Notes under the pieces: generated by a model | Told to the model about the DNA's origin: nothing | Seen by the model: the letters and a program-made list of their open reading frames with translations, nothing else | The model's database searches: none | Position numbers and translations under genes: made by a program | Assembly: GCA_044892525.1 (NCBI GenBank) | Contig: CM097885.1 | Coordinates: 28,460,001 to 28,524,000, forward strand | Length of the DNA: 64,000 bases | Direction: 5' to 3' | Source of the DNA: Schmidtea polychroa | Taxonomy: Eukaryota | In this document: positions 13,139 through 62,554 of the stretch, one piece after another | How the letters are laid out: the number at the start of each line of letters is the position of its first letter | Position numbering within the stretch: the first letter of the stretch is position 1

Positions 13139-13630
13139 TTAAACTGCTTTTTTCGGGTTATTAAAACAAAATTTATTTATAAAATAGTTTGTATTGAGAA
13201 GGCATTACACCGCGATGCACTGATAATGTTGAAAATGGCATAGATGTCTCAAAATCTTGCTCAAAGTTAGTGCTGAAGATGAAAAAAGGACATGGGCGCA
13301 TGATATTCCCAAAATCCAACTTGGATTACGCAACTGAGCTTGCTTTGAAATTAAAATTAGGCTACATGGTGATAAAGTAATCACACATACTTTATTATAT
13401 TATAACGATGAGTCAAAAACTGAAGAAGGGAAAACGTCTAAATAAATTACTCAATGCAACTCAAATGTATTCTGGTGCTTATTATAATTTAAAAAATTAA
13501 TTGCGTTGTTGGTTATGGAGAACTTTGAGTTTCATTGTCGAAAATATTTGACATTGTCTACCATCCAGGTGGAAAGTCTCAGGTAAAAAATTGATATTTC
13601 AGCGTAGTCAAAATAGCCTATGTGCAAAAA

Positions 13631-14322
13631 AGTAGAGAGAAGTGTGCTCCATGACTCATCGTTTTTTGTCATTTTTTTGCACTACCCCCCCCCCGATGAC
13701 TCAGCGCAAAACAAAGACATATGACTCATCGATGACTCATCCATAGCAACCGTGGTAACTGGATCAAGGTCATATGACTCACCCATAGCAACCGTGGTAA
13801 CCATGGTAACTAGATCAAGGTCGCATGACTCATCCATAGCAACGGTGGTCCTTATGGCAACTAGGTCAAGGTCATTCTATTTTTAGTAACAAGGTCACAT
13901 GAAGTCATCGATGACTCATCAAGGTCATTCTATTTTTAGTAACTAGGTCATATGGCTCATCATTTTTAAACAAAGACGATGACTCATCATTAAAGTACAT
14001 ATGACTCATCACCTTTGATCCTGCCCGATGACTCATTCTTAAAGTATGTATGACTCATCATTTTTTAAACAAAGACATTTAATATTTAAATAAATACATT
14101 TAAACAAATATTTAAATAAATACATTTTAACAAATATTTAAACAAAGACATTTAATCAAATATTTAAACAATGACATGTAAACAAATATTTAAATAAATA
14201 CATTTAAACAAATATTTAAACAAAGACATTTAATCAAATATTTAAATAATGACATGTAAACAAATATTTAAATAAATACATTTAAACAAAGACATATAGA
14301 CAAAGACTCATCGATGACTCAT
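13631..14322 (+). repeat. Left terminal inverted repeat
   Basis: Reverse complement of 26935-27661, with differences in internal repeat copy number. Confidence 0.9.
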
Positions 14323-14489
14323 AGTTTAAATAAGGAGTTATTATTTTTTTTGTGCACTATCCCCCACCTGTATGACTCATCGATGACTTCTTTGAACAAA
14401 GACCAATCATTTATTTTTAAGACAAAGACTATCACACACGATTAGAACGATGACTCAGGACTCCACTAGAACAAAGATGTTATTATAAA

Positions 14490-14950
<461 letters not shown>

Positions 14951-15649
14951 AATGTAATATTATTATTTTATTATAATTATTATTATTACTATTATTACTA
15001 TCAAATTAATATTATTTCAAAATATTATTTCAAAGTAATAAAAAATAATAATAAAAAATAAAATAATAATAACGAAGTAATAAAAAACATTACCATTTCT
15101 GATATAATTTTCTCCATAAAAACATATTCTTCATAAAAAAAATTCATAATAAAATTTCATAAAAATTCATAAATTGATTTCATAATTTCTAAAAAACATT
15201 ATAATTAAAAACATAATAATTGATATTTACTTTTTCATCCACGAGCATTTTGAAAAAAGCATAGAGTATATGTAACGTCTATCCAATCAGAATACAGATA
15301 GGATAGAGAAATATACACACACATACTCTATGCTTTGTTCTAAAATGATGAGTCATCAATGACTCACATAGTAACAAATAATGTCTTTGTTACTCATTGT
15401 CTTTGTTTAATTTACACGTGACATGAGTTCAACATGTCTTTATAATAATAATATTTTTGTGAATAATAATAAAATCAATTAATTAATTAATAATAATAAA
15501 ATTAATAATAAAATTAATTAATTAATAATAATTATAATAAAATAATAATAAAAAATAGTATTACTTTGAAAAATAATAATAATATTACTTTGAAAATAAT
15601 AATAAAATATATATATATATCAAATAATTTAAATGCAAATCAATATAAT

Positions 15650-15991
15650 AAAATGGTGGGTCCCTCAAAAAATCTTTTCAAACCTTATAATTCGAAAGGT
15701 ATTTCAGAGGTCTATCTAATGGTCATATCTTCGAATGGTATAACCTTCAAAGGGTCATAAACCTTCGAATTTTTTCAAACCTTATAATATATATATATCA
15801 AACAAAAGGAAATTCAAAAATGAGTATGATGGTCCAAGTTTAAAGGGTCCAAGGTTCAAATTTTGAAAACCTTATAATATACATATCAAACAAAAGGTAA
15901 TACAAAGATAAGTATGATAGTCCAAGGGTCGAAGGTATATGGTGTGTCAATAACCTTCAAAGGGTCAAAAACCTTCAATTTTTTTCAAACT

Positions 15992-16022
<31 letters not shown>

Positions 16023-16170
16023 CATTCGAAAGGTATTTAAGAGGTCTATCTAATGGTCATATCTTCGAAGGTGTATGGTTTGTCAATAACCTTCAAAGGG
16101 TCAAAAACCTTCAATTTTTTTTTAAAATCTCATAATATACATATCAAACAAAAGGTACTACAAAGGTAGT
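15650..16170 (-). repeat. Short inverted copy of the ~120-bp satellite of the right arm
   Basis: e.g. GAGGTCTATCTAATGG is the reverse complement of CCATTAGATAGACCTC at ~26090 and ~26338. Confidence 0.8.
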
Positions 16171-16234
16171 CATCGCTGACTTTTTATAACAAAGACAATG
16201 ACTCATCATTTTTAAAACAAAGACATCTGTTTTC

Positions 16235-16258
16235 AGAATGACGCGCCCATGGGATTTA

Positions 16259-16327
<69 letters not shown>

Positions 16328-18147
16328 ATTATATTCATGTCTTTGTTAATCATGCACTTTTATTGCAAAGTCTTTGTTAATTATGCAAGTGTATTGCAAA
16401 TTTATTAGTCATACCTTGATATTAATTTTACACACATACTCAATCCATTATTATTATTGCAAGTATTAGAGATAAACCTAAAATATTTACACACACAAGT
16501 CTATTCGAAAGTATACATGCTAGGATTACACACCTTAAGGGTAGAAAAATATTTCTGAGTGATTGTGTGTGCAATAGCCAAAAATAATAATTTTTATCAA
16601 ATTCATGTAAATTTTTTAAAAAAATCTATGTGTGTGTTATTGGTAGAGTGTGTGTGTGTAAAATATAAAATTTTATCAAATACATGTAAATTTAGTTAAA
16701 TTTTATGAAAAATCTATGTTTTCTGTGTGTGTGTGTTATGGGTAGAGTATGTGTGTGTGTGTGTAAAAATTTTATCAAATACATGTAAATTTCTTTAAAA
16801 AATCTATGTGTTTGTGTGTTATGGGGTATAGAATTATTATGTGTGTGTGTAAAAATTTTATCAAATTTCTTTAAAATTTATAAAATATCTATGTGTGTGT
16901 GTTATGGGGTAGAGTATGTGTGTGTGTAAAAATTTTATCAAATTTATGTAAATTTAGTTAAATTTTATGAAAAATCTATGTTTTCTGTGTGTGTGTGTGT
17001 TATGGGTAGAGTATGTGTGTGTAAAAATTTTATCAAATACATGTAAATTTCTTTCAAAAATCTATGTTTTCTGTGTGTGCTATGGTTAGAGAATTATTAT
17101 GGGTGTATGTGTGTACAAATAATAAATTTTATAAAAATCATGTAAATTTCTTTAAAAATCTATGTTTTCTGTGTGTGTGTGGTATGGGTAATTATTATGG
17201 GTGTGTAAAAAAACTTTAATCAAATACATGTAAATTTCTTTCAAAAATCTATGTGTGTGCTATGGTTAGAGAATTATTATATGTGTATTTGTGTACAAAT
17301 AATAAATTTTATAAAAATCATGTAAATTTCTTTAAAAAATCTATGTTTTCTGTGTGTGTGTGCTATGGGGTAGAGTATGTGTGTGTAAAAAAACTTTTAT
17401 CAAATACATGTAGATTTCTTTAAAAAATCTATGTGTGTGTGCTATAGAGTAGAGTATGTGTGTGTGTGTGTAAAAAACTTTTATCAAATACATGTAAATT
17501 TCTTTCAAAAATCTATGTTTTCTGTGAGTGCTATGGTTAGAGAATTATTATGGGTTTATGTGTGTACAAATAATAAATTTTATAAAATTCATGTAAATTT
17601 CTTTAAAAATCTATGTTTTCTGTGTGTGTGTGTGTGGTATGGGTAATTATTATGGGTGTGTAAAAAACTTTTATCAAATACATGTAGATTTCTTTCAAAA
17701 ATCTATGTGTGTGCTATGGTTAGAGAATTATTATATGTGTATTTGTGTACAAATAATAAATTTTATAAAAATCATGTAAATTTCTTTAAAAAATCTATGT
17801 TTTCTGTGTGTGTGTGCTATGGGGTAGAGTATGTGTGTGTAAAAAACTTTTATCAAATACATGTAAATTTCTTTCAAAAATCTATGTTTTCTGTGTGTGT
17901 ATGTGTGTGTTATGGGGTAGAGTGTGTGTGTGTGTAAAATATTTTATCAAATTTCTTGAAAAATCTATGTTTTTGTGTGAATTGTACATGTATTGCACAT
18001 GCTTATTTTAACACGGGTATATATGCTTAATATGTGATTATACTCTGAGTTTATCCGACAAGATATTTTGTCCCCCTATGGGTAATGTTCACACTCAACA
18101 TGTTGCAAGTGTACTGCTCACAAGGGTATTATTATTATTATTATTAA

Positions 18148-18219
<72 letters not shown>

Positions 18220-18330
18220 CACAAGCTCACACTCAACATTTCTCAAAGGGTATAAATTCTGACCAATCAATTAAGGAGTAGAACAAAAATATATTGCGTT
18301 GCGGTATTTTAAAACTTAAATATATTTTGA
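16235..18330 (+). repeat. Left inner arm incl. ~60-80-bp GT-rich minisatellite (16590-17975)
   Basis: Reverse complement of 21230-23165 (shared GACGCGCCCATGGG, ACACCTTAAGGGTAG, and the identical MGNVHTQHVASVLLTR pseudo-ORFs on opposite strands). Confidence 0.9.
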
Positions 18331-18353
18331 TACCATTTTCAACATTTTCATCA

Positions 18354-18416
<63 letters not shown>

Positions 18417-18893
18417 ATTATTATTTATTATTGCAAATATTTACACGCACACAAGTTATGGGGTAGATAATTATTGTGTGTGCAATAGGCAAAAATAATA
18501 AATTTTATAAAAATCTTGTAAATTTCTTTAAAAAAATCTGTGTGTGTGTGTTATGGGCTAGAGAATTATTATGTGTGTGTGTGTAAAAATATGAAATTTT
18601 ATCAAATTTCTTTAAAATTTATGAAAAATCTATGTGTGTGTGCATTGTACATATATTACACATTCCTATTTTAACACGGACGTATATGCTTAATATGTGA
18701 TTATTATATAAATACTCTTAGTTTATCATTATTATTACCACAAGCTCACACTCAACATGTCTCAAAGGGTATAAATTCTGATCAATTAAGTGGTAGAACA
18801 AAAATATATTACGTTGCGGTATTTTAAAACTTAAACACATTTTCACACAAGGTACAGCTCACATGCAATATCTCACAAGGGTATTAATATTAA

Positions 18894-18939
<46 letters not shown>

Positions 18940-19003
18940 ATTATTATTATTATTATTATTATTATTATAATTATTAATATCAATGTTATATTATTATTTT
19001 TCA

Positions 19004-19055
<52 letters not shown>

Positions 19056-20156
19056 AATAATATCAATGTCATATTATTATTTTTCAAACTAATATTATTA
19101 TTATTATTATTATTATAGAGCGATTCAGTATCATTTATTACGCAGTATTTTACGTTGCAGTATTTTAAATTAATGAGTTTTTATTATGTGATGTTCAAAT
19201 ATATGTGTGGATGCAAATATTTGTTTAAAATTTTCATCAGTGTATCCTCAATTTTAAATTAATTTGATATATTAATTAACTGAAAACTTTATTTCACTTG
19301 AAATTCATCATATTACTCCATGTAAATTAACCAAACGATCATGTCTCTATAATAATAAAAAATAGAAATTTGACAAAAATTACTCCAAATGATAAAGAAT
19401 TTATACCAAATTTATTAATGAATTGTCAATAAATGATCATGTATTTCTCACAAAGATATAAATTAACCAATGAATTTATTAATTATTGTCTGAAAATATT
19501 ATTTTAAATGACATATTTAACCAATATTCTTCGCACAAAATATTCATGTTTTGGTAAATGTTGCTCAAAAATCTTAACTTATTCTCACAAAGATATATTA
19601 CAATGATAATAAATTAGAATTCTAACTAATAAACACCTTAATTGGTTAACCAGATGATCATATTTCTATTATGACTCGAACAAAGATTTTTACTCCAAAG
19701 AATCAATGTTGTTATTAATGTATTTCTCACGAAGTTAACTATTGTAATGAACATTAGATGAATAAATTACCTATGAAAATATTTTACTAAATTACCTTTT
19801 AAATGACAAAGTTAATCAATAAATTAATCGTTCGAAATAAGAATAAAGTTACATTTCAAATATTACCCAAATATTTCTCACTAAATTACCTAAGAATTTA
19901 TATATATACATGTGCCTTAATTACCCTAGCGACCAGTACCTTTACGACAAATACCCATAGGGGGACAAAATATCTTGTCGGATAAACTCTGAGTATATAA
20001 AAGAACTTACAATCTTTATTGATTAATTTGTTGTATATATATTTGCATTGACACATCAAAATGTCAGATAATATTTATAAATTAACTAAAAAATATACAA
20101 AATAGCAATAAATGTGCATGATTCAAAAAAAGACACTAGAAATTTGTATTGAGAAA

Positions 20157-20795
20157 TTACATATATATAGTATGATATTCATTAATCAAAGTTGAACAGG
20201 CTTGACAATTGCGAACATTCTTCTCGTGACACTTAGAACAAACAATTACATGACCACACGGTAAAAACAAAACCGAAACTTGATTTTCTTTACAGATTGA
20301 ACAAGTTAAATACATTTTCTTAACATCGTTCAGTTTTTCCGTTAGTTTATTTTCAATCAAATCGACTTTCGCCATCCATTCATAAATCAATCTACTATAT
20401 CCCGGTTTCAATCTTAAATACATGCAACTCCAAAAGTATTCATTTAGTGTATCGTTGTTTACCACTGTTTTTTCAAAATACATTAAATAACTAAACTTCA
20501 AAATACATTTATCATAATTAAATAAATCAATCAAATATTCAATAGAGGAATGTTTGAAAATTTTTAAAACATTTATGATTTTCTTATCAGTGTAAGCATC
20601 ATGATTATTTATAAAATCTTCAACTATGTTAAAAAATTTCAATGAGCGATTATCTTCAGAATAGGATAGACTTAATCTTTCATTATTTCGAGTTCCTTGC
20701 TATAAATCACAAAAAAATTGATAAAATAATAAAGTTACCAAATACATTTTGTGATTTACACAATCATATTCAACAGTTTTACTTGTAGAAATCAT
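20157..20795 (-). CDS. IAP-type C3HC4 RING-finger protein without BIR domain, ~199 aa; exons 20795-20739 and 20699-20157
   Basis: C-terminal CSICKENQVSVLFLPCGHVIVCSKC...CQAC...TIYM* is the IAP/MDM2-like terminal RING; 39-bp GT-AG intron 20738-20700 removes the in-frame TAG and links to ATG 20795. Confidence 0.8.
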
Positions 20796-21019
20796 CAGTA
20801 ATAACTAAATTACTTTTGTTTTTACATTTATCACAATAGATATAACCAATCAAATTAGAATTTTCAAAATGTAATCGATGAGTCACGTGACCTTGATGAG
20901 TCATATGACCTTGAATGAGTCATACTTTATAAAATAAGAATTTTGAAGAAAATAATCATGAAAAACAATGAAAATATTGCTTATTACAACATTCGGATAC
21001 CCTATATAAAACCCATCGA

Positions 21020-21090
<71 letters not shown>

Positions 21091-21229
21091 ATTGAAAATA
21101 ACTTTGAAAATAATATATTCATGCAAATGATAAAAATGTTGAAAATCATGAAATCGATGCAAAAATTATGAAAATAATTATGAAAATGTTCTTGCATCTA
21201 ATGAAAATGGCGTCAAAATATGTTTTGAA

Positions 21230-21376
21230 AATAAGATTTTAACATACCACAACGTAATATATTTTTGTTCTACCCCTTCATTGATTAGTCAGAATTTAAT
21301 AATATGCCCTTTGAGACATGTTGTATATGAGCATTATCCATCCGGGGACTAAATATCTTGTCGGATAAACTCTGAG

Positions 21377-21439
<63 letters not shown>

Positions 21440-23013
21440 CCTTGTGAGCAGTACACTTGCAACATGTTGAGTGTGAACATTACCCATTATCTTGTCGGAT
21501 AAACTCAGAGTATAATCACATATTAAGCATATATACCCGTGTTAAAATAAGCATGTGCAATACATGTATAATTCACACAAAAACATAGATTTTTCATAAA
21601 TTTTAAAGAAATTGGATAAAATTTCATATTTTTACACACATACACACACAATAATTCTCTACCCCATAGCACACACACATACACACACAGAAAACATAGA
21701 TTTTTGAAAGAAATTTACATGTATTTGATAAAAGTTTTTTACACACACATACTCTACCCCATAGCACACACACACAGAAAACATAGATTTTTTACAGAAA
21801 TTTACATGATTTTTATAAAATTTATTATTTGTACACAAATACACATATAATAATTCTCTAACCATAGCACACACATAGATTTTTTAAAGAAATTTACATG
21901 TATTTGATAAAAGTTTTTTACACACCCATATTAATTACCCATACCACACACACACACAGAAAACATAGATTTTTAAAGAAATTTACATGATTTTTATAAA
22001 ATTTATTATTTGTACACACATACACCCATAATAATTCTCTAACCATAGCACACACAGAAAACATAGATTTTTGAAAGAAATTTACATGTATTTGATAAAA
22101 GTTTTACACACACACATACTCTACCCCATAGCACACACACACATAGATTTTTTAAAGAAATCTACATGTATTTGGTAAAAGTTTTTTACACACACATACT
22201 CTACCCCATAACACACACATATATAGATTTTTCATAAATTTTAAAGAAATTTGATATAATTTTTACACACATATACAATAATTCTCTACCCCATAGGACA
22301 AACACACATATAGATTTTTTAAAGAAATTTACATGTATTTGATAAAATTTTTACACACACACATACTCTACCCATAACACACACAGACACAGAAAACATA
22401 GATTTTTCATAAAATTTAACTAAATTTACATGTATTTGATAAAATTTCATATTTTTACACACACATACTATACCCGTAACACACACACATAGATTTTTCA
22501 TAAAATTTAACTAAATTTACATGTATTTGATAAAATTTCATATTTACGCACACACATACTATACCCGTAACACACAAACACAAAAAAACATAGATTTTTC
22601 TTAAAATTTACCTAAATTTATACATGTATTTAATAAAATTTCATATTTTACACACTCACACTCTACCAATAACACACACATAGATTTTTTAAAAAAATTT
22701 ACATGTATTTGATAAAATTTATTATTTTTGGCTATTGCACACACAATCACTCAGAAATATTTTTCTACCCTTAAGGTGTGTAATCCTAGCATGTATACTT
22801 TCGAATAGACTTGTGTCTGTGGAAATATTTTAGGTTTTTCTCTAATACTTGCAATAATAATAATGGATTGAGTATGTGTGTAAAATTAATATCAAGGTAT
22901 GACTAATAAATTTGCAATACACTTGCATAATTAACAAAGACTTTGCAATAAACGTGCATGATTAACAAAGACATGAATATAATATTAATAATAATAATAA
23001 TAATAATAATAAA

Positions 23014-23056
<43 letters not shown>

Positions 23057-23165
23057 TTAATATTAATAATAATAAAAATAATAATAATACTATTGATAAT
23101 AATAAATAATATTGATAATAATAATAATTTTGATATTAATAATAATAAATCCCATGGGCGCGTCA
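21230..23165 (-). repeat. Right inner arm incl. CA-rich minisatellite
   Basis: Reverse complement of 16235-18330. Confidence 0.9.
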
Positions 23166-23689
23166 TTGTCTTTGTTCAAAAAATAAATGAGTCATCGATG
23201 AGTACTTTTGTATTGCCGTTTGTTGGATAGATGTCTTTGTTACTAAAAATAGAACGACAAAAAAAATAATATAATCAACGATTTAAACAAAATTAAATTA
23301 TTACGTAATCGATTATTAAAACAAAAATAAACCGCCGGAACAAAAATAGATGTCTTTGTTACTAAAAATAGAACGACCTTGGTGACTCAGCGGCTGAGTC
23401 TTTGTTTAAATTACCTTGATAATTAAAACTTGATGATAATAATAATATTAATAATAAATTTTGATAATATCTTCGAAAATAATAATAATACTATTGATAA
23501 TAATAAATAATATTAAAATTAATAATAATAAATAATAATAATACTAATGATAGTAATAAATAATAAATCCCATGGGCGCGTCATTGTCTTTGTTCAAAAA
23601 ATAAATGAGTCATCGATGAGTACTTTTGTATTGCCGATTGTTTGATATGTATATTACAAGGTTTGAAAAATTTAAACCTTGGATCCTTA

Positions 23690-25880
23690 GACTCTTTGAC
23701 CTTCAAACTTGGACCATGATACTTACATCTCAAATACCTTTTGTTTGATATGTATATTATAAGGTTTTAAAACTTTTGAACCTTGGACCCTTTCGGTGGT
23801 ATGACCTTTGAGGGTATGACCATCATACTCACCTTTGTATTACCTTTTATTTGACATGTATATATCTATATGTATAATTTTTAAAGGTTTTGGACCCTTT
23901 GAAGGTTTGAAGGTTCAGGACCATTCATAAACCTTTGAAAGTATGACCATGATACTTACATCTCAAATACCTTTTGTTTGATGTATATTATAAGGTTTTA
24001 AAAATTTTGAACCTTGGACCCTTTCGGTGGTATGACCTTTGAGGGTATGACCATCATACTCACCTTTGTATTACCTTTTATTTGACATGTATATATCTAT
24101 ATGTATAATTTTTAAAGGTTTTGGACCCTTTGAAGGTTTGAAGGTTCAGGACCATTCATAAACCTTTGAAAGTATGACCATGATACTTACATCTCAAATA
24201 CCTTTTGTTTGATGTATATTATAAGGTTTTAAAAATTTTGAACCTTGGACCCTTTCGGTGGTATGACCTTTGAGGGTATGACCATCATACTCACCTTTGT
24301 ATTACCTTTTATTTGTCATGTATATATCTATATGTATAATTTTTAAAGGTTTTGGACCCTTTGAAGGTTTGAAGGTTCAGGACCATTCATAAACCTTTGA
24401 AAGTATGACCATGATACTTACATCTCAAATACCTTTTGTTTGATATGTATATTATAAGGTTTTAAAACTTTTGAACCTTGGACCCTTTCGGTGGTATGAC
24501 CTTTGAGGGTATGACCATCATACTCACCTTTGTATTACCTTTTATTTGACATGTATATATCTATATGTATAATTTTTAAAGGTTTTGGACCCTTTGAAGG
24601 TTTGAAGGTTCAGGACCATTCATAAACCTTTGAAAGTATGACCATGATACTTACATCTCAAATACCTTTGTTTGATGTATATTATAAGGTTTTAAAATTT
24701 TTGAACCTTGGACCCTTTCGGTGGTATGACCTTTGAGGGTATGACCATCATACTCACCTTTGTATTACCTTTTATTTGACATGTATATATCTATATGTAT
24801 AAATTTTAAAGGTTTTGGACCCTTTGAAGGTTTGAAGGTTCAGGACCATTCATAACCCTTTGAAAGTATGACCATGATACTTACATCTCAAATACCTTTT
24901 GTTTGATGTATATTATAAGGTTTTAAAAATTTTGAACCTTGGACCCTTTCGGTGGTATGACCTTTGAGGGTATGACCATCACTCACCTTTGTATTACCTT
25001 TTATTTGACATGTATATATCTATATGTATAATTTTTAAAGGTTTTGGACCCTTTGAAGGTTTGAAGGTTCAGGACCATTCATAAACCTTTGAAAGTATGA
25101 CCATGATACTTACATCTCAAATACCTTTTGTTTGATGTATATTATAAGGTTTTAAAAATTTTGAACCTTGGACCCTTTCGGTGGTATGACCTTTGAGGGT
25201 ATGACCATCATACTTACCTTTGTATTACCTTTTATTTGTCATGTTTATATCTATATGTATAATTTTTAAAGGTTTTGGACCCTTTGAAGGTTTGAAGGTT
25301 CAGGACCATTCATAAACCTTTGAAAGTATGACCATGATACTTACATCTCAAATACCTTTGTTTGATGTATATTATAAGGTTTTAAAATTTTTGAACCTTG
25401 GACCCTTTCGGTGGTATGACCTTTGAGGGTATGACCATCATACTCACCTTTGTATTACCTTTTATTTGACATGTATATATCTATATGTATAATTTTTAAA
25501 GGTTTTGGACCCTTTGAAGGTTTGAAGGTTCAGGACCATTCATAAACCTTTGAATGTATGACCATGATAATTACATCTCAAATACCTTTTGTTTGATATG
25601 TATATTATAAGGTTTTAAAACTTTTGAACCTTGGACCCTTTCGGTGGTATGACCTTTGAGGGTATGACCATCATACTCACCTTTGTATTACCTTTTATTT
25701 GACATGTATATATCTATATGTATAATTTTTAAAGGTTTTGGACCCTTTGAAGGTTTGAAGGTTCAGGACCATTCATAAACCTTTGAAAGTATGACCATGA
25801 TACTTACATCTCAAATACCTTTTGTTTGATATGTATATTATAAGGTTTTAAAATTTTTGAACCTTGGACCCTTCGACCCT
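23690..25880 (+). repeat. Tandem satellite, ~231-bp unit, ~9.5 near-identical copies
   Basis: GGACCCTTTCGGTGG recurs at 23785, 24016, 24247, 24480, 24710, 24941, 25170, 25400, 25633. Confidence 0.95.
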
Positions 25881-25916
25881 TGGACCTTTGAACTCACCAT
25901 CAAAAGTCCTTTTGAA

Positions 25917-26019
<103 letters not shown>

Positions 26020-26039
26020 GATTTGAAAAATATTTAATT

Positions 26040-26855
26040 TTGGACACCCTTTGAAGTTATTGACCCACCATATACCTTCGAGGGTATAGCCATTAGATAG
26101 ACCTCTCAAATACCTTTCGACTGATATATATATTATAAAGTTTGAAAAAATTCGAAGGTTTTTGACCCTTTGAAGGTTATTGACCAACCATACACCTTCG
26201 AGGGTATGACCATCATACTTACCTCTCAAATACCTTTCGACTGATATATATATATATATATTATAAAGTTTGAAAAAATTCGAAGGTTTTTAACCCTTTA
26301 AAGGTTATTGACCAACCATACACCTTCGAGGATATGACCATTAGATAGACCTCTCAAATACCTTTCGACTGATATATATATATTATAAAGTTTGAAAAAA
26401 TTCGTAGGTTTTTTACCCTTTGAAGATCGAGGACCCACCATTCACCTTCGAGGGTATGACCATCATATTTACCTTTGTATTACCTTTTGTTTGATAAATA
26501 TATTATAGTTTGAAAAAATTCGAAGGTTTTGTACCCTTTGAAGGCCAAGGACCCACCATTCACCTTCGAGGGTTTGACCATCATATTTACCTCTCAAATA
26601 CCTTTCGAATGATATATATATATTATAAAGTTTGAAAAAATTCGTAGGTTTTTTATCCTTTGAAGATCGAGGACCCACCATTCACCTTCGAGGGTATGAC
26701 CATCATATTTACCTTTGTATTACCTTTTGTTTGATAAATATATTATAGTTTGAAAAAATTCGAAGGTTTTGTACCCTTTGAAGGCCAAGGACCCACCATT
26801 CACCTTCGAGGGTTTGACCATCATATTTACCTCTCAAATACCTTTCGAATGATAC
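26040..26855 (+). repeat. Tandem satellite, ~120-bp unit, ~7 copies, related to the half-unit of the 231-bp satellite
   Basis: ACCTTCGAGG...GACCATCATA recurs about every 120 bp. Confidence 0.9.
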
Positions 26856-26934
26856 CCTTGTGTGAAGGTTTGGCCTTATTTGACCTTTGGAAATTTAAAT
26901 ATGACCTTGACCTTAAAACACGACACTGACCTCG

Positions 26935-27661
26935 ATGAGTCATCGATGAGTCTTTGTCTATATGTCTTTGTTTAAATGTATTTATTTAAATATTTGTTTA
27001 TATGTCATTGTTTAAATATTTGATTAAATGTCTTTGTTTAAATATTTGTTTAAATGTATTTATTTAAATATTTGTTTACATGTCATTGTTTAAATATTTG
27101 ATTAAATGTCTTTGTTTAAATATTTGTTTAAATGTATTTATTTAAATATTTGTTTAAATGTATTTATTTAAATTTTTGTTTAAATGTATTTATTTAAAAA
27201 TTTGTTTAAATGTATTTATTTAAATTTTTGTTTAAATGTATTTATTTAAATATTTGTTTTAATGTCTTTGTTTAAATATTAAATATGTCTTTGTTTAAAA
27301 AAATGATGAGTCATATGTACTTTAACAATGAGTCAGTTGGCTTTGTTTCAAAAATTATGAGTCATATGACCTTGTTACTAAAAATAGAATGACCTTGACC
27401 TAGTTACTAAAAATAGAATGACCTTGGTGAGTCATCGATGACGTCACGTGACCTAGTTACTAAAAATAGAATGACCTCGACCTAGTTACCGTGGTTACCA
27501 CGGTTGCTATGGATGAGTCATATAACCTTGACCCAGTCACCGCTGTTGCTATGGATGAGTCATCGATGAGTCATATGTCTTTGTTTTGCGCTGAGTCATC
27601 GGGGGGGTAGTGCAAAAAAATGACAAAAAACGATGAGTCATGGAGCACACTTCTCTCTACT
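26935..27661 (-). repeat. Right terminal inverted repeat
   Basis: Reverse complement of 13631-14322. Confidence 0.9.
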
Positions 27662-27799
27662 CAAAAAATTCAGATTTTTTGCTCGACTTTAAATATTTTT
27701 GACTCGGAGAGGGTTAAATCGAATATAAAAATTATTATATATTTAATTTGTTATACATTTAAATTAAATATAAAAATCTTTTTTCCTTGCAGAAATTTT

Positions 27800-28912
27800 G
27801 GACCAACCTGTTTTTTTGATGCATTAAATAAAAATAATATTTATTGAAATTTTAACAGCACCAAATATATATTAATTAATTTTTTAATCCCCTTAAAATG
27901 GATATTGATAGAATAATTAAAATGAATGAAGAAGAGCTCATATATTTTATGAAAGACAATGACATGTTAACAAATGAATTAGAATGCTATTCTTGCCAAA
28001 AAGAAATGATACTAGTAAAGACAAAAAGAAATTATGATTGTATGTGTTGGAGATGCCGATTATCTGAGTGTATAAAACGAGATTATTATGTTTCGGTTAG
28101 AGAAAATAGATTTTTGAGAAGATAAGGATACCTCTCAAAGAAATTTTAAAATTTCTATTTTATTGGTCGAAAGGTTGCAAAGTGCTGAAATTTTGAAGTT
28201 TGTGAAAATTAAAGAAGATTCAATACGAAAGCTAAGACAATTGCTTATTTCAGCAATCAAAAACCATAACGAAGCGCATCCTTTTCTGTTAGGATGTCCA
28301 GGAAAGCTCGTGTAGGTAGACGACACCATGCTGAATCACAAGGTGAAGGCACACAGAGGAAGCCCCAAAAAACAAATTTTGGCATTGGTTATTGTTGATT
28401 GCTCTTTTTCACCAGCGAAAGGCTACATGTGCCTTGTTCCTGATAAAAAAGCTGAAACAATAATACCAATTATAGAGAAATATGCGAGAAAAGGTTCAAT
28501 TATCCATACAGACGATGCAAAAATCTATAGACAAGTAGATAAAAAGGCATCTTATGAACACAAATCAATTGTTCATAAATATAAATTCGTGGATTATAAA
28601 AATGGCGTTCACACCCAGAACATCGAAAGTTACAATAACAAAATAAAGCTAAATATAAAAGAAATGCGGGGTATAAAAGATAATTGCCGAGAAAATTTTC
28701 TTGTGGAGTTTATGTGGTTGGATAATGACAAAAATGATTGTTTTGAAAAAACATTATATTTGATTAGAAAGTTCTAAGTTATTAATTTGTTATGTTATTA
28801 ATGTTTAAAAGTTATTTTCTGATTTTATAATATTGTGATTTTATTTAAAACAATAATATAAGTTATGATTTATTTATAAAAAAAATTCTGGGTCAAAAAA
28901 TTGGGATGATCC
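27800..28912 (+). mobile_element. Merlin (IS1016/ISXO2-like) DNA transposon with inactivated transposase (27898-28777)
   Basis: 8-bp TSD GAAATTTT (27792-27799, 28913-28920); imperfect TIRs GGAcCAaCC..TTTTTTGA; zinc ribbon CYSC...CWRC; DDE motifs VDDT, IIHTDD, GVHTQNIES; frameshift and stop codons. Confidence 0.85.
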
Positions 28913-41663: not shown

Positions 41664-42735
41664 GGAACCATTGTTAATAATAAAGGAATTTTACCATATA
41701 ATTTTGCCACTAGTCTTGAAGTGCTTTGGTCAACTCCCCAATTACCGCCAATTTGGGATGGTGTTACTGAAGACGAATATTCTATGGCTGAAATTATATG
41801 GAGGGAAACCAACTGTAATAACCTTTGTGATTATATGATGGTCTATCTAAAACTAAATGTCTTTCTTTTAGCTGACTTTTTCCAACAGTTTCGAAATAAA
41901 TCTTTAGCTCATAATCGTCTTGAACCTATAAACTTCTTGGGCATTCCCGGTATGTCTTGGAATTCAGCTCTGATGACTTTAGACGAACCCATCGAGTTGA
42001 TTCAAGACATGGAGATGTTTAATTTCTTTGAGGGTGGTATAAGAGGGGGGTTGACATTTGTAAACAAACATTATGTTAATACAAATGAAAATACTGAACT
42101 TCTATATATCGATATTAATAATTTGTACGGCTGGGCTCTTAGCCAAAAACTACCTAGGGGTGAATTTTCTTGGGTGACGAATGAGCCTGAATTAATTAAT
42201 TTATTAAAAGACTGTGAATCTATTGATCTAGATTCACTTTCATATGGGTATACTATGGAAGTGGATCTAGATATTCCAACATCTTTTCACGATAAACTTA
42301 ATGATTTTCCGGTTGCAGCTGAAAAAATGTGTGCTCCAGGATCTAAAGTGGAGAAGTTGATGCTCACACATTTACCCAAGAAGAACTATGTTCTTCATTG
42401 GAAACTTCTACAACTTTATCTTTCTCTTGGAGTAAAAGTTACTCAAATTCACAGGGCTATCAAATTTCATCAGTCTACTATATTCAAAAATTACATTGAC
42501 ACAAACACCCAACTTCGAGCTGTGTCAACAAATACTCTTGATAAAAACTATTTTAAGCTTCTTAACAATAGTTTATATGGAAAGACAGTCGAAAATTTGA
42601 AGAAACGATTGAACTTGAGATTGTGTAACTCAGCTTCTAAACTGATTACTTATTCCTCTAAACCCACATTTAAAAAGACTTATAAAATAGATCATGACTT
42701 AATAGCCGTTTTATTAAATAAGGATTCAGTGTGTC
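41664..42735 (+). pseudogene. Polinton/Maverick protein-primed family B DNA polymerase fragment
   Basis: KGILPY, EGGIRGG, LYIDINNLYGWALSQKLP (motif A), YFKLLNNSLYGKT (motif B); open frame but truncated before YxDTDS; tail of the listed ORF is unrelated. Confidence 0.9.
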
Positions 42736-42967
42736 AGAGGTATAATTATTATATAAGAGGTCAATTATTACATAAGGGGGTCAATTATGACGAAAATTTA
42801 AAAAATCAATTATTACATAATCAAAAATATAATTACGCCATTTTATATGTAATTACGTAATTTCCAAAATTATGTAACACCATATCACCCCCTAGGGTAC
42901 CCATACACATATTACACAATACTGTATATTTGGCTTGGTTTATACTCCTCACTTCTCACTACTACAT

Positions 42968-49399: not shown

Positions 49400-50167
49400 T
49401 TACGGGAAGACTTCCCCTTCGGCCAACATCTCGTCGATATCCACGGGTAGCCGGCGATCCACGATAAATTTCGTACTTCCGGCCGGGACTACTCGGAACA
49501 CTTCCTTGGTGGGTATCGAATGTGAAGCTGAGATCTCTCGTATCGTCGATTTAGCGACCGTCAATGATGCCTCTAACGCGGCGATGGCGTTCCTACGCCT
49601 CTGATTCTTTTCGGAACGCGTAGGCCTCTTATGCTTCCGGTATGGCGCTGCCGCTTCTACTGAGGGTTGAATATTTTGGGGCAGAAGAATCGGAGCCAAA
49701 ATAGGGTCCGGCGGACCATTTGTCATGGGCCTAGAGCCCGACAGAACTGGGGCGAGAAGGGGTGGTAATTGAGATCCATGCCCCTTACAGTTGGCCGTTG
49801 ATGTAGAGGTCCCGTATGCCTGATGATGGGTCGGGAAGACATTGGTCCCGTCCTGGATGGGGTATTTACGAACTCTTTTTGCTACTTCTGCTTCTGTATA
49901 GACTTTATGTAGGGCCTCTGATTGGGCTTTAATCGTTAGCCGATGGCATCTACTTTCCTCAAGGAGACTGTCACGGCAGTGCTCCAGGCGTAAGATTTTA
50001 CTTCGTTCCTCCTTCATCTGTGGCGGGGAGAACCACGTACCTTCGTATAGGTCTATACGCTTTTTTAGTGCCCCAATGTAAAGATGTAGTTTCTCGATAT
50101 CCATATTCTTATCAGCACAAGAAAAACACGGGCGAAGGTCCTTGTTAGAGCTGGTAGGTGTAGTCAT
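49400..50167 (-). CDS. Orphan-family ORF, 255 aa (CxxC, coiled coil, EGTWFSP motif)
   Basis: Long ORF in a GC-elevated island; clear paralog of 53375-54124. Confidence 0.75.
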   Translation of the reverse strand: MTTPTSSNKDLRPCFSCADKNMDIEKLHLYIGALKKRIDLYEGTWFSPPQMKEERSKILRLEHCRDSLLEESRCHRLTIKAQSEALHKVYTEAEVAKRVRKYPIQDGTNVFPTHHQAYGTSTSTANCKGHGSQLPPLLAPVLSGSRPMTNGPPDPILAPILLPQNIQPSVEAAAPYRKHKRPTRSEKNQRRRNAIAALEASLTVAKSTIREISASHSIPTKEVFRVVPAGSTKFIVDRRLPVDIDEMLAEGEVFP

Positions 50168-53374: not shown

Positions 53375-54124
53375 TCACTTTTCCCATTCAGTTTCCGCTA
53401 ATAATGCCTCTAGGTCGAAAAATTCGGACGCATTCTCCTCCCACGTGACGCCAGCCGCGGAGATAATACGCTCTGAGATTCCGGTGTTCACGCTGTTTGC
53501 AGGAGCAACACTACCTTCTATTGATTCAACCACTGAGCCTCGCGTCTTCTCCTTTGCTGCAATTCTTTCCTTCTGCTTTCGTTTCCGTTCAGCTCGAGAT
53601 AGCTGTCGCCATTTGGGCTTAGAAGAGGAATCGATAATGGGGGTGGCTTTAGATTTGGAAGCAATCTTTTGATTCACTTTGCTGGTGCCCGTACAGATTA
53701 CGTCATTAGATTTGGGCGAGAGCTCCGCCTCCACACACCCCTGGCATGATTTCTCCGATGTACGCGGTCTATCAAGAGGTTGATCGTGATGCGTGGGGAA
53801 TACATTATCCTCCTCAATGATCGGAATGCTTACGAACTTTCGCGTTGTTGCAGCTTGTAAGTAAACCTTATGAAGGGCCTCAGATTGCTCCTTAATAAGA
53901 ATACTTTGAAATATACTTTCTGCGATCAGGCTATCACGACAGTGTTCGCTTCTATACAATTTCTTTTTCACTTCCTTCATCTGCACTGGACTAAACCAGG
54001 TGCCTTCTAATTCGTCGATCTTGCGTTTAAGAAGTCCGATTTGTGTCTGTAGTCCCTTGATGGCTACATTCTTATCTGCACACGAATAACAAGGCTTGAG
54101 AACATTCTTGGCGACTGGATTCAT
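53375..54124 (-). CDS. Orphan-family ORF, 249 aa
   Basis: LKPCYSCADKN...LKRKIDELEGTWFSPVQMKE...EHCRDSL...QSEALHKVY...NVFPTHH shared with 49400-50167. Confidence 0.75.
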   Translation of the reverse strand: MNPVAKNVLKPCYSCADKNVAIKGLQTQIGLLKRKIDELEGTWFSPVQMKEVKKKLYRSEHCRDSLIAESIFQSILIKEQSEALHKVYLQAATTRKFVSIPIIEEDNVFPTHHDQPLDRPRTSEKSCQGCVEAELSPKSNDVICTGTSKVNQKIASKSKATPIIDSSSKPKWRQLSRAERKRKQKERIAAKEKTRGSVVESIEGSVAPANSVNTGISERIISAAGVTWEENASEFFDLEALLAETEWEK

Positions 54125-60895: not shown

Positions 60896-61357
60896 ATGTC
60901 CAATGCTGAATTAAGGAACGTACAGGAAGACCGCTCGTCGACCGACTCGAGCCTAGGAATTACCGGCGAGGGGGCAGACGAAGCCGTTCGATTGAGGGAG
61001 GACGCAGAAATCGCCCGGTTACGGTCCAGATGGATCTGGTACAAGATTCATGATTGGACCTACCAGAATGTGGTCCCGGTGATTCCAAAGGTGGAGCCAT
61101 ATCTCAACCATTCGGCATTGGCTTTGATCGACGCATTAGACGATGCGAAGGAGGCGGTGGTCATTGCCAAGATCCGACCTATGAGTGAGTTGTTCCACCA
61201 ATCGAAGGGGTGCCCCCCAACAACAGCAATTCCGAGGAAGAAGATTCGGCCGGGTAAAGCGGCGCGAGCGAGAATAAGGCAAGCCAGCCAGACCCAATTA
61301 ACTCTCCATTCTACTGGATCAGGGGCTACCCCAAGAGAATCGACCAGGAAACTCTAA
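60896..61357 (+). CDS. Orphan-family ORF, 153 aa
   Basis: GC-elevated ORF; VVIAKIRPMSEL and KKIRPGKAARARIR match VISAVRPMSKEL and SKRLGRDGRERLK of 47011-47301; followed by family 3' module. Confidence 0.65.
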   Translation: MSNAELRNVQEDRSSTDSSLGITGEGADEAVRLREDAEIARLRSRWIWYKIHDWTYQNVVPVIPKVEPYLNHSALALIDALDDAKEAVVIAKIRPMSELFHQSKGCPPTTAIPRKKIRPGKAARARIRQASQTQLTLHSTGSGATPRESTRKL

Positions 61358-62185: not shown

Positions 62186-62554
62186 CTAAAAATTATCCAC
62201 AAATCCATTTTTTTCATTATTGCTGGTGGGTTCGACGTTTCGTCGTCTGGCGATCTCCGCCATCTCGATCGCCACTAGTCTGACTTGATCGATCACGGCT
62301 CGATCGATGGCTGCCTGATTCCCCTGGGTTTCTAGTTGTCGGATTCGCAGTCGTAGTGCCTTTATTTTCACCTGGTCTTGAGTAGCCTGGAGTTGCAACT
62401 GTTGGATCAACCGCATACTCTTCTTCATTTCTGTAGGGTTGAACCAGGTATTCTCCAGTTCTCGACATCGACCCTTGAGTCTGTCGATCCACCTGCGCAA
62501 TTCCTCATTCTGTTTTGCCGCTGTCTCCTTATCTGCCCACAGGTTTTCCATCAA
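62186..62554 (-). CDS. Orphan-family ORF, ~122 aa, 3'-truncated
   Basis: ADK...LKGRCRELENTWFNPTEMK links it to 49400/53375; C-terminal half links to 47011. Confidence 0.65.
   Translation of the reverse strand: MMENLWADKETAAKQNEELRRWIDRLKGRCRELENTWFNPTEMKKSMRLIQQLQLQATQDQVKIKALRLRIRQLETQGNQAAIDRAVIDQVRLVAIEMAEIARRRNVEPTSNNEKNGFVDNF

Follow-up and report, generated by a model that had tools for sequence, protein, structure and literature searches.

Arrays of host-factor sites are familiar at viral origins and enhancers, and in such ends they can aid replication besides transcription. To our knowledge, little has been established about the activation and replication of Mavericks, and neither a virion nor an origin has been dissected. 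Vertebrate Mavericks have (AGT)2 or (AG)3 ends, 6-bp duplications and intact lengths of 12.7–24.6 kb according to the available part of PMC8097293, and a Maverick expansion is reported in Dugesia (available part of preprint 10.64898/2025.12.11.693146). Baculovirus hrs serve as enhancers and origins with a strength that tracks the CRE/TRE count (PMC13513840, available part), and adenovirus replication employs the host factors NF-I and NF-III (PMC6141750, available part). No report of AP-1 arrays in Maverick repeats was found in the open-access literature. The accessible portion of PMC11414722 mentions putative sites in repeats made partly of a nematode Polinton TIR, and term searches of the main text, as far as it was available, returned no mention of AP-1 in the planarian chromatin/genome paper PMC9522251 and none of Maverick/Polinton in PMC11410931.

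We analyzed a 64,000-nucleotide stretch of Schmidtea polychroa contig CM097885.1 (hereafter the window), in which 13631–14322 had been described as the left TIR of an element and likened to a dense multi-factor enhancer. The TIR assignment was borne out: self-comparison disclosed that 13631–14322 and 26935–27661 are mere tips of multi-kb inverted arms, within a 14,031-bp insertion (13631–27661) that has inverted ends and a 6-bp target duplication, CAAAAA, on both sides. These terminal repeats bound a foldback derivative of Maverick/Polinton type that is non-autonomous and has the following features.

13625–13630, forward strand: left target-site duplication CAAAAA.
13631–13650, forward strand: left terminus opening with AGTAGAGAG, the same 20 bp in both ends, at a step in depth and with unrelated flanks.
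13651–14070, forward strand: left motif array with 11 AP-1 words, nuclear-receptor half-sites, RFX-type sites, two MEF2-type sites and HMG-type ACAAAGAC.
13863, within the left motif array: direct repeat AGGTCAAGGTCA of nuclear-receptor half-sites.
14012, within a low-depth, near-private stretch of the left motif array: TCF-like CCTTTGATC.
14081–14322, forward strand: AT-rich 26-bp minisatellite with TAAACA and ACAAAG words and one AP-1 word at its close.
14323–14480, forward strand: left-only extension with two further AP-1 words and ACAAAGAC words, then a long (TTA)n array.
15340–15440, no strand assigned: internal motif cluster with two AP-1 words, HMG-type words and an E-box.
15686–19053, forward strand: left internal inverted arm with 120-bp and ~90-bp repeat arrays, mirroring 21022–26854.
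16180–16230: motif cluster inside the left internal inverted arm.
21022–26854, reverse strand: right internal inverted arm containing tandem arrays of 231-bp and 120-bp units.
23165–23415 and 23585–23620: motif clusters inside the right internal inverted arm.
26935–27661, reverse strand: right terminal repeat with 10 AP-1 words, three MEF2-type sites, a CRE at 27439, an E-box at 27445, and RFX-type and nuclear-receptor sites.
27662–27667, forward strand: right target-site duplication CAAAAA.

TIRs, AG-rich ends, a perfect 6-bp duplication and a length in range align the element with Maverick/Polinton as characterized in the available part of PMC8097293. It departs from that group in its inverted arms of ~5.4 and 6.6 kb (~13631–19050 versus 21020–27661, with a 2-kb core between them) and in its end motif AGTAGAGAG, which agrees with (AGT)2 at 5 of 6 letters and mixes the (AGT)2 and (AG)3 types. 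Unlike an autonomous Maverick/Polinton, it has no polymerase, integrase, ATPase or capsid frame; no frame of at least 45 aa in 13600–27700 corresponded to a core Maverick gene (protein-primed polymerase, integrase, ATPase, protease, capsids). Rfam returned no match in 13400–27900, and the left array folded no better than its shuffles (z = -0.75). Between the two terminal repeats the modules are rearranged, with 81% identity within the motif array and 98% identity of the minisatellite portion (14081–14322) to the right end. The right-arm 231-bp array at 23712–25873 (9.3 copies, 97% alike, with one AAGGTCA and one ACAAAG per unit) and the 120-bp array at 26003–26854 are far longer than their mirror at 15686–16170. 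The terminal 20 bp (13631–13650) are likely the core origin for protein-primed replication as well as the integrase site.

Public contigs were used to follow the family beyond this copy. From bin 13578–13595 to bin 13632–13649, the summed depth, which is no copy number, rose ~960- and 1030-fold (runs X1 and X5), and in 41 X1 contigs the sequence ahead of base 13631 was unrelated. The sharp end at 13631 and the many different flanks identify a many-copy mobile family. Run X7 contained near-identical pieces at a depth below 8, while the terminal 20-mer gave 0 matches in viral contigs and an array 25-mer gave 0 in metagenome contigs. The depth over the TCF-like CCTTTGATC stretch was 1,713 versus >100,000 nearby, so this site is not a family feature, and a Wnt/TCF reading built on its perfect TCF-like match was rejected.

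Several neighbouring features were recorded in the window. A broken ISXO2/Merlin-type transposase (PF12762) lies just right of the element at 27920–28777 (forward strand), and an intronless protein kinase frame (PF00069, 31291–32133, forward strand), 3.6 kb from the right end, is a candidate neighbour for an enhancer effect. A 358-aa frame at 41784–42860 (forward strand) contains words like B-family polymerase motifs and is presumably a fragment of another Maverick polymerase; it had no Pfam match at E 0.001 and did not match the element at the DNA level. In a GC-richer zone, the frames at 49400–50167, 53375–54124 and 62186–62551 (reverse strand) and at 60896–61357 (forward strand) were without a Pfam match, and three GC-richer-zone frames look alike by eye in sharing a GTWF..P..MK stretch.

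The element carries a single cargo gene, the sole ATG frame of at least 100 aa in 13600–27700.

20157–20795, reverse strand: RING (C3HC4, IAP-type) gene, Pfam PF13920, E = 1.4e-10.
20840–20925, reverse strand: compact predicted RING-gene promoter with AP-1 words at -127, -108 and -90, two CAAGGTCA, one E-box, a CCAAT-type word at -55 and a TATA-like word at -49.

The gene consists of an open frame at 20157–20699 and a short upstream frame from an ATG at 20795; a 39-nt GT-AG segment suggests a predicted intron that would join the two as exons, the alternative being an in-frame stop. Five ENA proteins are 87–92% identical to the RING frame, and a wider family aligns past the RING itself at 28–49%. 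The ESM Atlas returned generic RING clusters alone, under 0.9, and searches of viral contigs with the RING protein, the RING alignment and the ATPase alignment did not confirm relatives. The family alignment matched 28 metagenome loci, and the genes of six (L244, L247, L251, L254, L257 and L260) were examined. In two of these six, L244 and L251, a family member stands right ahead of a Pox_A32-type packaging ATPase and an rve integrase, a setting that links the element's RING gene to Maverick/Polinton cassettes; the family profile matched the L244 protein at 99.4% in hhalign (E = 1.1e-21, 130 columns). These cassette relatives and the profile match make a Maverick accessory role likely for the RING gene. 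Frames further downstream, without a Pfam match, resemble capsid genes in our estimation. Signalling-type cargo was also seen beside the RING gene, comprising a dual-specificity phosphatase and a TRAF gene in L244 (190–2732) and a TBP gene in L251 (430–729).

Motif content was evaluated against 300 dinucleotide shuffles of 13631–14322. The factor names attached to words here (AP-1, CRE, NR5A/ERR/ROR-type, MEF2, RFX, HMG/Sox/TCF and Forkhead) are our assignments by likeness to consensus sequences. TRE and CRE words, unlike the other motif names, are spelled out in the available part of PMC13513840. The approximately 12 TGACTCA described earlier for the left repeat were counted as exactly 12 (shuffle mean 0.10, maximum 2; 0 of 300 shuffles reached 12), 10 of them within ATGACTCAT, compared with 5 TGACTCA in the 50 kb of the window beyond the element. 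The other words were likewise found where the earlier note had placed them: TCAAGGTCA (3), CTATTTTTAG (2), CCATAGCAAC (3) and one full X-box GTAACCATGGTAAC at 13797, each in 0 of 300 shuffles. RFX-type sites in the left repeat comprise one full and several half sites, beside two of MEF2 type. The "many" TAAACA and ACAAAG numbered 10 and 7 (shuffle means 1.2 and 0.5; 0 of 300 for both), although most stem from the 26-bp minisatellite at 14081–14290. With seven left-repeat words each at 0 of 300, the proposed enrichment over shuffles was recovered, and the clustering of several families lies above chance. The right repeat (26935–27661) contains 10 TGACTCA, three CTATTTTTAG and, as had been noted, TGACGTCA at 27439, a CRE adjoined by an E-box (CACGTG) at 27445; this copy has both CRE and E-box in degenerate form in its left repeat. 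Variants of TGACTCAGC at 13697 and 23383 look to us like an antioxidant-response (Nrf2/Maf) site.

Dinucleotide shuffles leave tandem amplification uncorrected, and repeat-preserving controls were therefore run. Letter-permuted versions were present in the repeats for 0.4% of ATGACTCAT, 0.5% of TCAAGGTCA, 0.7% of CTATTTTTAG, 0.06% of CCATAGCAAC and <0.01% of full X-box permutations, but for 43% of TAAACA, 33% of ACAAAG and 10% of E-box permutations. The stricter Forkhead word RTAAACA showed no enrichment (2 sites; 33 of 300 shuffles), and the right-repeat count of CACGTG was reached in 14 of 300. The dense multi-factor set proposed in the earlier note thus holds for its bZIP, nuclear-receptor, MEF2 and RFX-type words, which are rare, whereas Forkhead and E-box had to be given up as specific signals. 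With letter-relabelled controls, which preserve repeat structure, the real repeats matched 8 of 8 panel motifs and the controls (46, of which 23 independent) at most 2, for a panel chosen after seeing the sequence; the probability of at least 4 such matches is 0.002 at 100 assumed host motif families and 0.07 at 300.

Flanking contexts gave a further view of how the array arose. The 33 AP-1 words of the element occupy 23 flanking contexts, and the 12 of the left end occupy 11, so the array is not a plain tandem one. The 12 left-end words share a single orientation (p = 0.0005), and AP-1 binding is nearly orientation-blind; this uniformity indicates copying from one word, and a directional protein fits as well. 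The array is partly a product of amplification, its TAAACA and ACAAAG being largely minisatellite-derived; the longer words differ. It might be a neutral, minisatellite-like mosaic, in which slippage and inter-arm recombination multiplied and rearranged a handful of chance words. The element is full of tandem arrays, its two ends differ through module rearrangement, and TAAACA and ACAAAG are common words, all of which would suit such an origin. It is improbable, however, that several rare consensus words were seeded by chance; clusters recur ahead of genes both in the element and in L244, and the left repeat's single CRE is retained in 98–99% of family depth. We regard a neutral mosaic as quite unlikely.

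Variation between copies bears on the same question. Variants were drawn from public contigs over 13560–14080, as 40 of the 70 variant rows listed. In these 40 of 70 rows, motif breaks numbered 3 versus 16.2 expected at random placement with the same spectrum, and motif completions 5 versus 0.6. At positions where at least 79% of family depth is unlike this copy in both deep runs, the family has the full motif at 4 of 5; one AP-1 and one CRE site, both degenerate here, have their full sequence in 97–99% of family depth. None of 31 deeply covered variant rows hit an intact AP-1 core, and at degenerate RFX positions variants keep to the host consensus (2 rows, alone within chance), both among the rows listed. 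Nearly all motif positions fall in repeated words, however, and within these the difference is no longer significant, at 3 of 133 motif versus 10 of 185 non-motif positions (p = 0.25; 40 of 70 rows listed), which also suits a neutral mosaic. The low break count could accordingly stem from concerted evolution or from short contigs that cross-map, and the test fails to separate selection from homogenisation or cross-mapping; the other 30 rows might lower the contrast further.

The same words reappear ahead of the cargo gene. Three AP-1 words, two CAAGGTCA and an E-box are packed 90–127 bp upstream of the predicted RING start, where the background expectation is 1.5e-5 such windows. In the L244 Maverick cassette, a duplicated module of ACAAAGAC, a CRE and a MEF2-type word lies upstream of the TRAF gene, with a bZIP word and a MEF2 spelling that differ from the element's; this composite occurred in 1 of 269 loci compared, both word and composite having been picked afterwards. 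L251 has ACAAAGAC once, in an intergenic position. Overall sharing of repeated words was not above shuffles (33 versus 26.6 for L244, 31 versus 25.2 for L251), and no AP-1 cluster showed up in the 475 bp ahead of L242, a closer RING relative. Host factors might instead bind only for replication or to keep the ends nucleosome-free, with no transcriptional enhancer effect. The arrays are densest at the two element ends, and the adenovirus replication complex includes host NF-I/NF-III (PMC6141750, available part), both in line with such a role. Against it, the motif words cluster tightly beside CCAAT- and TATA-like words immediately ahead of the RING gene and also precede a gene in L244; we consider this restricted role unlikely.

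The words could also be iterated sites for proteins encoded by a helper Maverick, their likeness to host motifs being incidental, as the earlier note had allowed for replication proteins of the element. The strictly one-way AP-1 word would suit this, as would the distribution of ACAAAGAC, of a kind that a lineage-specific site might show, with 29 copies in the element, none across the remaining 50 kb of the window and further ones in the Mavericks L244 and L251; related Mavericks moreover encode their own TBP. One or two viral proteins are nonetheless unlikely to fit the exact consensus of four or five unrelated host families. L244 has a CRE where the element has AP-1, both bZIP targets, and variants at RFX positions stay within the host consensus (the 2 rows above, among those listed and alone within chance). 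The rare words turn up in varied contexts, ahead of the RING gene and in a Maverick apart from this element, which suits host-factor sites better than those of one element-encoded protein, and helper-protein sites appear very unlikely.

Viral genomes were scanned for comparable arrays. Paired ATGACTCAT occurred at at least 121 loci of viral contigs, and among the matches listed L062 alone was informative; L083, L100 and L115 among them also have 11 TGACTCA words, and L083 looked unrelated on inspection. Pattern scans for two motifs yielded isolated matches scattered over viral contigs, among the 80 listed for each scan. A sigma-70 scan gave nothing; that promoter class is irrelevant for this host. 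L062, which we take to be a baculovirus-like genome, spans 132 kb; in an intergenic stretch with ubiquitin, FGF and DUF1247 genes close by, one strand bears an array with 17 TGACTCA and 18 CAAGGTCA. It couples TGACTCA with CAAGGTCA, as the element does, and shows no sequence homology between its array and the element repeats. At 1340–2000 of L062, units of ~29 bp pair CAAGGTCA with TGACTCA, and a CRE closes the array.

The repeated bZIP-type (TRE/CRE) arrays of the element resemble baculovirus hrs, where such arrays enhance and originate (PMC13513840, available part). The hrs, as far as that text extends, are internal and regular, with a 30-bp palindrome core and the viral IE1, whereas the element's array is terminal and an irregular mosaic with more motif types; an hr may be a functional analogue for the array, without implying family membership. 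The element end, if it is indeed a protein-primed replicon, resembles the adenovirus ITR in having host-factor-type sites behind a short terminal core. That ITR, on the available sources, has one or a few sites for NF-I and NF-III/Oct-1 and is not integrated, while the element has dozens of sites for other factors; by analogy the ITR may illustrate how the array could work, again without family membership. The Mavericks in the available part of PMC8097293 differ in that no host-factor-type motif array is described in their repeats. As far as the open-access literature shows, an AP-1-type array in Maverick repeats appears to be new; viral host-factor arrays were known already.

What is directly established is how the element is built and that it has inserted at many sites, together with the motif array, the recurrence of its words ahead of the RING gene and the similar module in L244. 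Judged from its sequence and from the viral analogues, the array is probably a virus-style enhancer and auxiliary origin for host bZIP, nuclear-receptor, MEF2, RFX and HMG-box factors. It would have been inherited from a parent Maverick and have grown by local duplication and shuffling of 8–14-bp words. Bound host factors would open the element ends, upon which the polymerase and integrase of a helper element would act on the terminal bases; the same factors would also drive inward transcription, here of the RING gene.

The tie to stress or wound signalling suggested in the earlier note can be extended, as a doubtful possibility, to a Maverick lineage that reads the host injury/stem-cell programme through an AP-1/nuclear-receptor/MEF2/RFX/HMG end enhancer and mobilises with gene-poor satellites during wounding and regeneration, its scattered copies being ready-made wound-responsive enhancers. 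The wound link stems only from AP-1 being the commonest word and from the induction of fos-1 and jun-1 by wounding in planarians (PMC5515462, available part). If the array were neutral, it would be just another repeat feature of the element family. A compact, many-copy end of recognisable host-factor-type sites would offer a direct way to test Maverick activation and copying and, in a planarian host, would bear on whether mobile elements seed regeneration-responsive enhancers.
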